A stretch of DNA of 64,000 nt from Escherichia coli (GCF_051903065.1 NZ_CP178438.1), one strand, 5' to 3'; shown: positions 34,247 to 39,945, counted from the stretch's first letter. The notes: generated by a model from the sequence alone, not told the origin. Made by a program: numbers and translations.

Positions 34247-35167
34247 ATGCGTTTCCGCCAGTTATTACCGCTTTTTGGCGCGCTGTTTGCGTTGTATATC
34301 ATTTGGGGCTCAACCTATTTTGTCATTCGGATTGGCGTGGAAAGCTGGCCTCCGTTAATGATGGCGGGCGTTCGATTCCTGGCAGCCGGTATTTTATTGC
34401 TGGCATTTTTGCTACTGCGCGGACACAAACTCCCCCCGCTACGTCCGCTGCTCAATGCCGCGCTGATTGGCCTGTTATTGCTGGCTGTCGGTAATGGCAT
34501 GGTGACGGTTGCCGAACATCAAAATGTTCCTTCCGGCATCGCCGCCGTAGTGGTTGCAACCGTGCCCCTTTTTACCCTGTGCTTCAGCCGCCTGTTTGGC
34601 ATTAAAACGCGCAAACTGGAATGGGTGGGTATTGCCATTGGGCTTGCCGGAATCATCATGCTCAATAGCGGTGGAAATTTAAGCGGCAATCCGTGGGGCG
34701 CGATTCTGATTTTAATCGGCTCGATTAGCTGGGCGTTTGGCTCAGTTTATGGCTCGCGCATTACCTTACCTGTAGGGATGATGGCGGGTGCGATTGAGAT
34801 GCTGGCGGCAGGCGTGGTGTTAATGATCGCGTCGATGATTGCGGGTGAAAAACTGACGGCGCTCCCTTCCCTTTCAGGCTTCCTTGCGGTCGGCTATCTG
34901 GCGCTGTTTGGTTCGATTATCGCCATCAACGCTTATATGTATTTAATCCGTAATGTCAGTCCGGCTCTCGCCACCAGCTACGCTTACGTTAACCCGGTGG
35001 TCGCGGTCTTGCTGGGTACGGGACTGGGCGGAGAGACGTTGTCGAAGATTGAATGGCTGGCGCTCGGCGTAATTGTCTTCGCGGTGGTACTGGTCACGTT
35101 GGGAAAATATCTCTTTCCGGCAAAACCCGTAGTTGCGCCAGTTATTCAGGACGCATCAAGCGAGTAA
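34247..35167 (+). CDS. yedA: EamA/DMT-family exporter
   Basis: 306-aa ORF with 10 predicted transmembrane segments in two EamA repeats. Confidence 0.8.
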   Translation: MRFRQLLPLFGALFALYIIWGSTYFVIRIGVESWPPLMMAGVRFLAAGILLLAFLLLRGHKLPPLRPLLNAALIGLLLLAVGNGMVTVAEHQNVPSGIAAVVVATVPLFTLCFSRLFGIKTRKLEWVGIAIGLAGIIMLNSGGNLSGNPWGAILILIGSISWAFGSVYGSRITLPVGMMAGAIEMLAAGVVLMIASMIAGEKLTALPSLSGFLAVGYLALFGSIIAINAYMYLIRNVSPALATSYAYVNPVVAVLLGTGLGGETLSKIEWLALGVIVFAVVLVTLGKYLFPAKPVVAPVIQDASSE

Positions 35168-35626
35168 ATGTATCCCCTGCGTGTCGATCTGCGCGCTGGC
35201 ACCTTCGCCGCAGATCCACTCTTCCAGACGCTCGGTAAGCGCTTCATCCGTCAGCTTCTCGCGCCCACGTAACGCGCACTCCCAGACAATCAATACGCGC
35301 CAGCCGAGTTCCTGCAAGCGACTGATATCGCGGCGATCGCGCTCAACATTTTTACCTATCTTCTCCAGCCAGAACTCGGTTCGAGTCGCAGGCACTTTAA
35401 ACAGATAGCAGTGATGATGGTGCCAGAAGCAGCCGTGGGTAAATATCACGCAACAATATTCATCAACGACAAAATCCGGGCGTCCGGGCAGACTGGCGTC
35501 CTGAACGCGAAACGCCAGGCCCTGCCCGGTTAACAGACTGGCGAGGCGCTTCTCTATCGCCGTATTACGCGTGGCAATCGCGCGCATATTTTTGCTGCGA
35601 GTGGCCTTATCGTGAACGTCGGCCAT
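35156..35626 (-). CDS. vsr: Very-short-patch repair endonuclease
   Basis: 156-aa product starting [28 protein letters not shown]; its 5' end overlaps the dcm 3' end by 20 nt in another frame. Confidence 0.85.
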
Positions 35627-37025
35627 GTTGTGCCTCTTGCTGACGCAACGCCACCGCCTGTTTGATTTTTGGCTCAAGCAGTTTTGCCACCGCGGCAAAG
35701 ACCGGCACGACCACCGAGTTACCGAGCTGGCGATAGGCCTGAGTGTCCGAAACCGGAATGCGGAATTTCGCTTCTCCCGGCGCTTCAAAACCCATTAAGC
35801 GCGCACATTCCCGAGGCGTTAACCGACGTGGACGATGTTGCTGATTCAGCGGATCGTCAAAGTCTTTCTCACCCGTGGCCATATCCCAGCCGCGATCGAT
35901 TAAAATTTCCGCGCCATCTTTGTAATAACGCGCAGACAGCGTACGCGTGACGCTTTGCGGATTGTTCGGATAAACCATTCCATAACCGAAGCCGTTACCG
36001 CGCGCCTGATGTTTTTTCGCATAACGATAGAGGTACTTCCACAGCACCGGCGTCAGGATATATTTCGCCTCGACCATCGGGTCCAGCAGCTGCGCCAGCG
36101 TCACTCGCTGTGCAGGGAAACATTCGCTGATATCACGCAGAGTAAAATCGGCTTTCAGATTAAGATCGCGACGAAAACCCACCAGCACGATGCGTTCACG
36201 GTGCTGCGGCAGGAAATGTTTACCATCGATGATTTTCGGATCGTCCGGCCCGTTATCTTCTGCATCAGCCACGTCATAGCCCAGTTCGTCCAGCGTCTGC
36301 ATGATGATGCGGAACGTTTTTCCTTTATCGTGACTTTTCAGGTTTTTGACGTTTTCGAGCACAAACATCGCCGGACGACGCGCGTCGATAATACGCACCA
36401 CATCAAAGAACAGCGTGCCCTGGGTATCGCAGGCAAAACCGTGCGCCCGCCCGAGCGAGTTCTTTTTCGATACGCCAGCCAGCGAAAATGGCTGACAAGG
36501 GAAACCGGCCAGTAAAACATCGTGTTCAGGAATGTGTTGACGAATATGTTCCGCCGCCGCCTCATCACTCACGCCTTCTTTATGGCTGAGGGTGATGTCG
36601 CGGATATCTTCATTAAAATGATGCGTCGCCGGGTCGCAATAATGATTGGCTTTATAAGTGCGTACCGCATGTTTGTTCCATTCGCTGGTAAACACGCACT
36701 GTCCGCCAATCGATTCAAAACCGCGACGGATGCCGCCAATTCCGGCAAATAGATCGATAAAGCGAAACGCATAATGCGGATGATGTGCCGGTGGTTTGGG
36801 TAACAACGTTTGCAGATGGGCGAACTCTTTCTCACTTAAACGGTGCCATGCCGAGTCATTCGCCAGCGCACGTTTTAAAATTGCCGCGCTCCAGTGATTC
36901 TCACCCACACCATTAAGCTGCGCCACCAGCGTTTTAACATCATAAATTTGCAGCAGTTTCTCCAGCATTGCCTGTGCGGCATTCCCGGTGCTGTATGAAT
37001 CGGTTACTGATATATTTTCCTGCAT
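35607..37025 (-). CDS. dcm: DNA cytosine-5 methyltransferase (CCWGG)
   Basis: 472-aa ORF with C5-MTase motifs (FAGIGG motif I; PCQPFS catalytic motif IV; ENVKN). Confidence 0.9.
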
Positions 37026-38349: not shown

Positions 38350-38447
38350 TTATACCTTTTTATTTTTCTGTGTCATGATGCCTCCGTTATTAGCCTTTTA
38401 TCGTCTTGTTTATATTTTTTGGGCCGGCATGATGCCGGCTTTTTTTA
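38350..38447 (+). ncRNA. rseX: Candidate small RNA (RseX-like) ending at a strong intrinsic terminator
   Basis: Hairpin GCCGGC-ATGAT-GCCGGC followed by TTTTTTTAT at 38423..38448 in the yedR-yedS intergenic region; the 5' end is not determined. RseX is recalled to map to this intergenic region in K-12. Confidence 0.3.
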
Positions 38448-38757
38448 TGCCTTCATTAATGTGCGCGTGATCACACCAGCCGTTTAGCGCAACAATCATT
38501 GATACCCCCTATCTTTCCGCTCAACTCATAACATATTGATATGCATTTATAATCTTCATGAATGCTTATATTTAGAATTCATAATTCTGAATTATATTAA
38601 ATAGATTGGAAACATTTTGAAATCTTTTAAATATATTTGTTACATGTAATCCTTAAAATAAAATGAACTTCATAGAATAGTATCCAAATGTGCTTTTTTT
38701 TGGATAACGGCACTTATTGATATATTCATGAAGATTATAATCACAAGGGAATACATA

Positions 38758-39945
38758 ATGAAAAGAAAAGTTCTGGCAATGCTGGTCCCGGCGTTATTAG
38801 TTGCTGGCGCAGCAAATGCGGCTGAAATTTATAATAAAGATGGCAATAAACTGGATTTGTACGGAAAAGTAGCGGGCCTGCACTACTTCTCTGATGATGC
38901 TGGCAGCGATGGCGACATGTCATATGCCCGTATCGGTTTCAAAGGTGAAACTCAGATCGCTGACCAATTCACTGGTTATGGTCAGTGGGAATTTAACATT
39001 GGCGCAAACGGTCCTGAAAGCGACAAGGGTAATACCGCAACGCGTCTGGCATTTGCAGGTTTCGGCTTTGGTCAGAATGGTACTTTCGACTATGGTCGTA
39101 ACTACGGTGTCGTATATGACGTAGAAGCATGGACCGATATGCTGCCAGAATTTGGTGGCGATACCTATGCTGGCGCTGACAACTTCATGAACGGTCGTGC
39201 TAATGGTGTTGCAACCTACCGTAACAATGGCTTCTTTGGTCAGGTCGATGGCCTGAACTTTGCTCTGCAATATCAGGGTAATAATGAAGATGATGGATTA
39301 TTCGGTCAGGAAGGTTCTGGTAACGGTAATGGCCGTAAGTTAGCTAAAGAGAACGGCGACGGCTTCGGTATGTCCACTTCCTATGACTTCGACTTCGGTT
39401 TAAGTCTGGGTGCTGCATATTCTAACTCTGACCGTACCGACAATCAGGTTCACAAAGGTACTCATAACACTCGTTATGGAGATCGCTTCGATGCAACTGC
39501 TGGCGGTGAAACAGCAGAAGCATGGACCGTTGGTGCTAAATACGACGCTAATAACGTTTACTTAGCAGCTATGTATGCTGAAACCCGTAACATGACTGGT
39601 TACGGTGATGCTGATGCCATCGCTAACAAAACCCAAAACTTTGAAGTTGTTGCTCAGTATCAGTTCGACTTTGGTCTGCGCCCGTCCATCGCTTACCTGC
39701 AATCTAAAGGTAAGGATTTAGGCGGTGTAAATAGTGATAACTTCGACAGCCAGGGTAATCATCACTACACCAACAAAGATCTGGTTAAATATGTTGATAT
39801 TGGTATGACCTACTACTTCAACAAAAACATGTCCACCTATGTTGATTACAAAATCAACCTGCTGGACAACGACGACGACTTCTACAAAGAAAACGGCATC
39901 GCTACCGATGATATCGTTGCTGTGGGCTTAGTCTACCAGTTCTAA
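38758..39945 (+). CDS. yedS: General-diffusion outer-membrane porin (OmpC/OmpF/PhoE family), intact
   Basis: Signal peptide [21 protein letters not shown] followed by [16 protein letters not shown] and C-terminal ...VGLVYQF; RBS AAGGGA upstream of the ATG at 38758. Confidence 0.8.

Follow-up and report, generated by a model that had tools for sequence, protein, structure and literature searches.

Background

Descriptions of the dcm and vsr arrangement date back to about 1990. It joins a mutagenic methylase to the nuclease repairing the damage that the methylase causes, and represents a classic functional linkage encoded by a gene overlap. The targets of Vsr are T:G mismatches in the CTWGG/CCWGG context, which result from deamination of Dcm-methylated cytosine (PMC2715241, PMC4924334). 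PMC4444293, citing Dar and Bhagwat (1993), describes dcm as partly overlapping vsr and reports that the dcm-6 nonsense mutation, at codon 45, abolishes vsr activity too, and PMC12907096 describes vsr as lying downstream of dcm and being co-transcribed with it. Genetic linkage of vsr to the methylase that creates its substrate is also found in other Enterobacterales and in Neisseria, and the vsr and methylase genes of Caulobacter are unlinked (PMC12907096).

The closest described system to the locus reported here is the E. coli K-12 dcm-vsr operon (b1961-b1960). In the K-12 MG1655 annotation vsr occupies 2030448..2030918 and dcm 2030899..2032317, an overlap of 20 nt, within the gene order yedI, yedA, vsr, dcm, yedJ, drpB. 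We have analyzed the corresponding region in a 64,000-nucleotide stretch of Escherichia coli DNA (GCF_051903065.1, NZ_CP178438.1), referred to below as the window. The locus shares with the K-12 operon its flanking gene order, its gene lengths (1419 and 471 nt) and its 20-nt overlap in the +1 frame; unlike K-12, it encodes a Dcm with the changes Q234K and F434L (2 of 472 residues) and a Vsr with the changes D21N and R58C (2 of 156). We consider it very probable (roughly 0.95) that this is the chromosomal E. coli dcm-vsr pair in its canonical form, with Vsr separately initiated and its output tied to dcm expression. The overlap arrangement is already known and ordinary. What the comparison across species adds is that the exact overlap is confined to the core Enterobacteriaceae genera sampled, that selection inside the overlap tracks the Vsr frame, and that vsr can outlive dcm.

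Results and discussion

The dcm-vsr junction in the window

dcm and vsr are arranged head-to-tail on the minus strand (Table 1). The first-pass annotation had placed the start of vsr within the 3' end of dcm, in another frame, and its coordinates proved exact to the base; the 20-nt length was confirmed from both the ORF list and the minus-strand sequence, which reads ATGGCCGACGTTCACGATAA across the overlap. The dcm frame ends at the junction as ...QHGRRSR followed by the stop, and its share of the overlap runs from the second base of the His467 codon through codons 468-472 (GRRSR) to the TAA. The vsr frame begins as MADVHDK, and its share consists of codons 1-6 plus two bases of codon 7. Relative to the dcm frame, the phase of the vsr ATG is +1. 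Translation of both frames across the junction, where that annotation had proposed looking for a frameshift or stop in either gene, revealed neither, and no internal stop or frameshift occurs in dcm (0) or in vsr (0). Being a dual-coding site, the junction is sensitive to assembly frameshifts and therefore useful as a quality check, and none is present here. The suggestion that the region could serve as an internal check of integrity is borne out by its open frames, its intact catalytic motifs and its agreement with the K-12 gene lengths. For both genes the term intact refers here to open frames with catalytic motifs in place and not to activity of the products.

Table 1 Features of the dcm-vsr locus (positions counted from the first letter of the window)
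Feature	Position	Strand	Description
dcm, DNA-cytosine (C5) methyltransferase gene	35607..37025	minus	ORF from ATG to TAA, 472 aa, 1419 nt
vsr, very-short-patch repair T:G mismatch endonuclease gene	35156..35626	minus	ATG 35626..35624, TGA ending at 35156, 156 aa, 471 nt
dcm/vsr dual-coding overlap	35607..35626	minus	20 nt, identical to K-12
Shine-Dalgarno-like AAGAGG of vsr	35632..35637	minus	read from sequence; 5 nt 5' of the ATG, within dcm codons 463-465
vsr/yedA convergent (tail-to-tail) overlap	35156..35167	both	12 nt, 3' ends
yedA	34247..35167	plus	

Two further features border on this junction. The vsr frame can be extended mechanically upstream of its ATG to yield a TTG-initiated ORF of 210 aa (35156..35788), which is considered below. 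At its other end vsr meets yedA tail-to-tail, and the annotations of K-12 and five more E. coli genomes show this arrangement too.

Comparison within E. coli

The junction had also been proposed for comparison with K-12, and over the 71 nt centred on it the window and K-12 MG1655 show no difference, the K-12 annotation having the same 20-nt overlap. Across the whole 1870-nt dcm-vsr region there are 34 nucleotide differences from K-12 (98.2% identity), and the four amino acid changes given above are the only ones. Three of the variant residues (Dcm L434, Vsr N21 and Vsr C58) are absent from five other sampled E. coli alleles. The complete 1870-nt region is 100% identical in the E. coli strains 23CRST027 and 23CRST031, and it is present at a coverage of at least 80% in 5358 of 5426 complete E. 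coli genomes, with the annotated order dcm, vsr, yedA in every genome among the matches listed. Six E. coli genomes were picked from across the identity range for closer comparison (23CRST027, K-12, N96, AR_0013, O157:H7 and M159-1), and the same 20-nt overlap is annotated in all six. Both frames are intact and the geometry is the same in N96, AR_0013, O157:H7 and M159-1, at nucleotide identities down to 94.9%. The odd features of the locus are limited to mild, lineage-specific substitutions, namely Dcm F434L in motif X and Vsr D21N and R58C.

Identity of the encoded proteins

The Dcm protein scored 259.6 bits against the Pfam DNA_methylase family (PF00145), 72.1 bits against DNA_meth_N and 949.3 bits against the NCBIfam model NF007772 ('DNA cytosine methylase'), whose curated cut-off is 710, and it aligned to PDB 3ME5 across its full length (residues 1-472). 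C5-methyltransferases are recognized by motif I (FxGxG), motif IV (PCQ, with the catalytic Cys), motif VI (ENV), motif VIII (QxRxR) and motif X (GNSV). All five are present in the window's Dcm: motif I as DLFAGIGG (91), motif IV as GFPCQPFS (174) with Cys177, motif VI as ENV (224), motif VIII as QHRER (274) and motif X as GNSV (435). With 470 of its 472 residues identical to K-12 Dcm, the enzyme would be expected to methylate the inner C of CCWGG. Residue 434, which directly precedes the GN of motif X (QLGNSV), is Leu here. K-12 Dcm, 3ME5 and M.HhaI all have Phe at this position, as do five other E. coli alleles and 29 of 29 orthologues from other species. The exact allele carrying Dcm L434 is found in 75 contigs in public data, and it is an established variant.

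The Vsr protein scored 128.9 bits against Pfam Vsr (PF03852; cut-off 27) and 179.2 bits against TIGR00632 (cut-off 97.85), and it matches the structures 1CW0 (E=1e-104), 1VSR and 1ODG. It resembles this family in being full length and in keeping the catalytic, zinc-binding and intercalating residues, and differs only by D21N and R58C. Residues D51, T63, H64, C66, F67, W68, H69, H71, C73, W86, D97 and C117 are all present. Among these, Asp51, His69 and Asp97, together with Thr63 and His64, are known as catalytic residues (1VSR/1CW0), Cys66, His71, Cys73 and Cys117 as zinc ligands, and Phe67, Trp68 and Trp86 as intercalating residues. Of 40 Vsr proteins from other species, 3 have Asn at position 21, and residue 58 is variable among them. 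As 154 of its 156 residues are shared with the characterized K-12 enzyme, this Vsr would be expected to place its nick 5' of the T of a T:G mismatch lying in a CTWGG/CCWGG site. The pairing of a cytosine methyltransferase with a T/G repair endonuclease, as recognized at first pass, is stated in the published record (PMC4444293, PMC2715241, PMC4924334, PMC12907096).

Geometry of the pair across species

One genome per species (GTDB) was searched for an internal Vsr peptide motif, independently of the junction, and this search returned 42 loci. An intact dcm abuts vsr in 16 of the 42, and 14 of these 16 keep the same ATG, the 20-nt overlap and the +1 frame. The overlap is kept in Escherichia albertii, E. 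whittamii and four further Escherichia (two of them labelled E. coli), in Salmonella enterica arizonae and diarizonae, in four Citrobacter, and in a Klebsiella MAG, Enterobacter soli and a proteobacterial MAG. In the other two (Raoultella and Enterobacter sp. 10-1) the dcm stop is in place and the homologous ATG has been replaced, with in-frame ATG or GTG codons close by as alternatives. Among the genera sampled, the exact 20-nt overlap is confined to the Escherichia-Salmonella-Citrobacter-Klebsiella-Enterobacter group, and this geometry is not a chance feature of the window.

Beyond this group, the linkage in Enterobacterales varies in its geometry and takes the form of a gap or of divergent genes. 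In Cedecea and Shimwellia dcm and vsr are 10 nt apart, in Erwinia mallotivora 30 nt and in Erwinia psidii 118 nt. In Mixta the spacing is about 200 nt, and in Buttiauxella, in which an opposite-strand ORF of 172 aa lies between the genes, it is 875-958 nt. In two Pantoea dcm is divergent from vsr, and a search for dcm in the neighbourhood of vsr in Tatumella, Winslowiella and others found none nearby. Since dcm and vsr are 10 to 958 nt apart or divergent in related genera, the overlap is not required for the pair to persist. Two loci display a further state. In Escherichia sp. MOD1-EC7003 dcm is reduced to a remnant of 196 aa by an in-frame deletion and retains the same TAA, ending inside an intact vsr. 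In Klebsiella indica vsr is intact and dcm is almost wholly gone.

These arrangements bear on the possibility that translation of vsr, and perhaps its transcription too, does not depend on dcm, the overlap being a neutral by-product of a shift of the dcm stop that extended Dcm into vsr. The separated or divergent genes of Erwinia, Cedecea, Mixta, Buttiauxella and Pantoea favor it, as does the persistence of vsr without dcm in K. indica. The Dcm C-termini of Mixta and Buttiauxella (...AVSKR and ...AAKKR, each followed by the stop) lie about 11 residues earlier than that of E. coli, and a Dcm construct crystallized as 3LX6 is without the last residues of the protein; both points likewise count in its favor.

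Selection across the junction

The 140 nt around the junction were aligned without gaps in 18 sequences, representing five named genera and one unclassified MAG, and column entropy was measured by codon phase (Table 2).

Table 2 Column entropy by codon phase across the junction (18 sequences)
Segment	dcm third positions	vsr third positions	Remaining phase	Mean
Upstream, dcm only	1.23	0.55	0.46	0.74
Overlap	0.12	0.50	0.24	0.27
Downstream, vsr only	0.11	0.97	0.04	0.38

At the overlap the entropy pattern changes from that of the dcm frame to that of the vsr frame, and both frames are thus coding, each on its own side of the junction. By mean column entropy the overlap is the least variable part of the junction, and the variation left within it falls at vsr third positions. 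In the overlap the N-terminus of Vsr is therefore conserved while the tail of Dcm drifts, a pattern that also fits independent expression of vsr. Since the dcm TAA lies within vsr codons 6-7 (GAT AAG), which encode the conserved Asp6-Lys7, a fixed overlap length follows from purifying selection on the Vsr N-terminus. We infer that the length is held constant mainly by the position of the TAA within these codons together with the intolerance of the Vsr N-terminus to indels. As the fixed length may be a passive result of selection on Vsr, the geometry alone does not prove selection for coupling.

The same entropies address the protein that would result from reading the vsr frame farther upstream. 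Variation upstream of the ATG follows the dcm frame only, which indicates that the extension of the vsr frame in this segment is not under coding selection and argues against both a longer Vsr and a frameshift fusion. A longer Vsr initiated at the TTG at 35788 (the 210-aa ORF) was rejected on this phase of substitution and on the 1CW0 chain, which begins at Ala2, consistent with initiation at the ATG at 35626. A Dcm-Vsr fusion protein produced by +1 ribosomal frameshifting within the overlap could draw on the +1 offset of the frames and on a vsr frame that is open for 54 codons 5' of its ATG. We regard such a fusion as scarcely credible: the entropy peak upstream of the vsr ATG lies at the third positions of dcm codons, not of vsr codons, the Vsr in the 1CW0 structure again begins at Ala2, and no slippery motif is apparent in the overlap sequence. 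Dar and Bhagwat reportedly showed in 1993 that Vsr is not a fusion.

Expression of vsr

The preferred reading, a canonical pair with a separately initiated Vsr, would operate as follows. Dcm would methylate the inner cytosine of CCWGG, deamination of the resulting 5-methylcytosine would create a T:G mismatch, and a Vsr nick 5' of the T would lead to resynthesis of a short patch and restoration of the site. The start codon of vsr, in the +1 frame, and the AAGAGG that would serve as its ribosome-binding site lie within the last dcm codons, so that a single dcm-vsr mRNA would give rise to two proteins, Vsr being initiated at its own ATG. Expression of Vsr would in this manner be tied to that of the enzyme creating its substrate.

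For co-transcription, and for the dependence of vsr on dcm, this reading draws on published work (PMC12907096, PMC4444293). The loss of vsr activity in dcm-6 could reflect Rho-dependent transcriptional polarity instead of translational coupling. A search of the available literature for translational coupling of vsr with dcm returned no match, and the mechanism rests on secondary citations. In the window, a crude consensus scan of the minus strand detected no sigma-70-like promoter and no terminator-like site between dcm and vsr. It likewise detected no promoter-like site inside dcm or between yedJ and dcm, a scan of this kind being too crude to find the real dcm promoter. The absence of an internal promoter or terminator is only weakly consistent with a single dcm-vsr transcript.

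These data also weigh on independent expression of vsr. The gene possesses a good Shine-Dalgarno sequence of its own (AAGAGG, with a 5-nt spacer) and an ATG, both of which are predicted to be unpaired, and a start site of this quality adds to the points in its favor from the species comparison. It has to be set against published reports that the dcm promoter drives transcription of both genes and that dcm-6 mutants lose vsr activity (PMC12907096, PMC4444293), and against the lack of any promoter-like site on the minus strand within dcm in the consensus scan. On balance we judge independence to be unlikely, though a serious contender. It differs from the preferred explanation only in the degree of coupling and not in the identity of the genes.

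In a stricter form of coupling, the ribosome-binding site of vsr would be masked by a hairpin in the junction mRNA that is melted only by ribosomes completing dcm, so that Vsr synthesis would strictly depend on prior synthesis of Dcm. The predicted fold of 120 nt at the junction has an energy of -39.5 kcal/mol (z = -2.05), and 8 of 200 shuffled sequences were equally stable. Its predicted closing stem, formed by GCGGUGGC with GCCACUCGC, brackets the Shine-Dalgarno sequence, the AUG and the dcm stop, and the pair formed by alignment columns 45 and 94 occurs in GC, CG, UA, GU and UG variants. The effect of the dcm-6 nonsense allele on vsr activity, as reported in PMC4444293, would be expected of such a gate, and in MOD1-EC7003 the degraded dcm keeps an in-frame ORF running into the overlap with an intact vsr downstream. 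The comparative data argue otherwise. Over the 18 sequences covariation is no better than chance: 119 of 500 shuffles matched the score, 455 of 500 matched the number of pairs in which both partners had changed, and RNAalifold gave a covariation term of +0.2. Outside Escherichia the z-scores of the fold range from -0.66 to +1.8. The Shine-Dalgarno sequence and the AUG fall in predicted loops and are not occluded, their mean probability of being unpaired being 0.64 for the window and 0.34-0.75 for the other sequences; in addition, Klebsiella indica has an intact vsr with almost no dcm upstream. Most columns of the stem are invariant because they are coding, and their invariance says nothing for or against a hairpin. 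We find a hairpin-gated start quite improbable, and a hairpin occluding the vsr ribosome-binding site was rejected as unsupported for its lack of covariation above shuffles, its lack of consistent stability outside Escherichia and its predicted unpaired Shine-Dalgarno sequence and AUG. The GAG core of the vsr Shine-Dalgarno sequence is kept in 18 of 18 aligned junctions (G61 invariant, A62 nearly so).

A more speculative proposal has two separate parts: that vsr needs ribosomes reading through the end of the upstream frame, in a true translational coupling possibly aided by the weakly supported hairpin, and that Dcm F434L alters the methylase while Vsr is retained. We hold this proposal to be doubtful. 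If true, the need for read-through could explain why the decaying dcm of MOD1-EC7003 has kept an in-frame remnant that ends at the same TAA.

Other observations in the window

The abundance of CCWGG/CTWGG over the 64-kb window was examined as a possible footprint of VSP repair. CCWGG and most of the sites derived from it by deamination gave the same range of observed-to-expected ratios (0.59-0.70), CCTAG gave 1.07, and the small counts make these ratios uninformative at this scale. The rseX sRNA is located at 38357..38446. A porin gene at 38758..39945 is intact in the window, and K-12 has the yedS pseudogene at the same position.

Distribution and substitutions of the dcm-vsr allele

Searching the 5426 complete E. 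coli genomes with the dcm-vsr region returned no match in 59 genomes and only a partial match in nine, and two of the matches in this collection lay on plasmids. Identity of at least 99% to the window allele was found in only 14 of these genomes. The Dcm encoded here carries leucine at position 434, within motif X (QLGNSV). This position is phenylalanine in K-12 and five other E. coli alleles, in 29/29 orthologues from other Enterobacterales, and at the equivalent position of both the Dcm structure 3ME5 and M.HhaI. The exact Dcm allele of the window is present on 75 contigs in public data.

Vsr differs from K-12 and the five other sampled E. coli alleles by two substitutions, D21N and R58C. 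Asparagine at position 21 is present in 3 of the 40 other species, and column 58 is variable across other species (R/Q/D/H/N/E). Cysteine at position 58 was found nowhere else among the E. coli alleles and the 40 other species compared. The exact window Vsr allele is carried by 566 contigs.

Features and substituted codons in and around dcm-vsr
Feature	Position	Strand	Detail
yedA	34247..35167	+	
vsr/yedA overlap	35156..35167	convergent	12 nt
Vsr codon 58	35453..35455		R58C
Terminator-like hairpin, then T-run	35568..35594	+	within vsr, antisense
Vsr codon 21	35564..35566		D21N
Dcm codon 434	35724..35726		Leu
rseX, Hfq-binding sRNA	38357..38446	+	Rfam RF01401, 96.7 bits (gathering score 50)
OmpC-like porin gene, intact	38728..39945	+	Pfam Porin_1, 471.7 bits; annotated start equates to 38758

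Decayed dcm and non-overlapping dcm-vsr pairs in other species

Two loci of the cross-species survey retain an intact vsr next to a decayed dcm. At the locus of Escherichia sp. MOD1-EC7003 (L045, 2588..3629), where yedJ is missing, dcm is reduced by an in-frame internal deletion to a 196-aa remnant that joins approximately residues 1-34 to approximately 311-472 and bears numerous substitutions. Neither the 20-nt overlap nor the junction sequence has changed there. In Klebsiella indica (L015, 9019..9738) just ~50 dcm codons (residues ~297-347) persist between yedJ and vsr; the frame of this remnant still stops at the TAA within vsr, and its sole start candidate is a GTG located 25 codons upstream. 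In K. indica, vsr is an orphan gene that occupies its ancestral locus.

Elsewhere both genes are present and do not overlap. In Buttiauxella (L047, 7418..8292, together with loci L042 and L043) dcm and vsr are spaced by 875-958 nt, and the B. agrestis gap contains a 172-aa opposite-strand ORF whose N-terminus resembles a signal peptide. The two genes are divergent in both Pantoea latae and P. septica.

Flanking features

The 3' ends of minus-strand vsr and plus-strand yedA overlap in the window, an arrangement annotated likewise in K-12 and five other E. coli genomes. The plus strand of vsr contains a terminator-like hairpin, which lies past the yedA stop codon at a distance of about 400 nt. 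This signal may be incidental, because the same bases, read on the minus strand, code for Vsr residues 11-20, which are highly conserved.

Beyond dcm, rseX has drpB (yedR) on one side and the porin gene on the other, a placement shared with K-12. The porin gene is annotated as ompC in strain 23CRST027, whose dcm-vsr region is 100% identical to that of the window, and it is intact here, whereas K-12 has the yedS pseudogene in its place.
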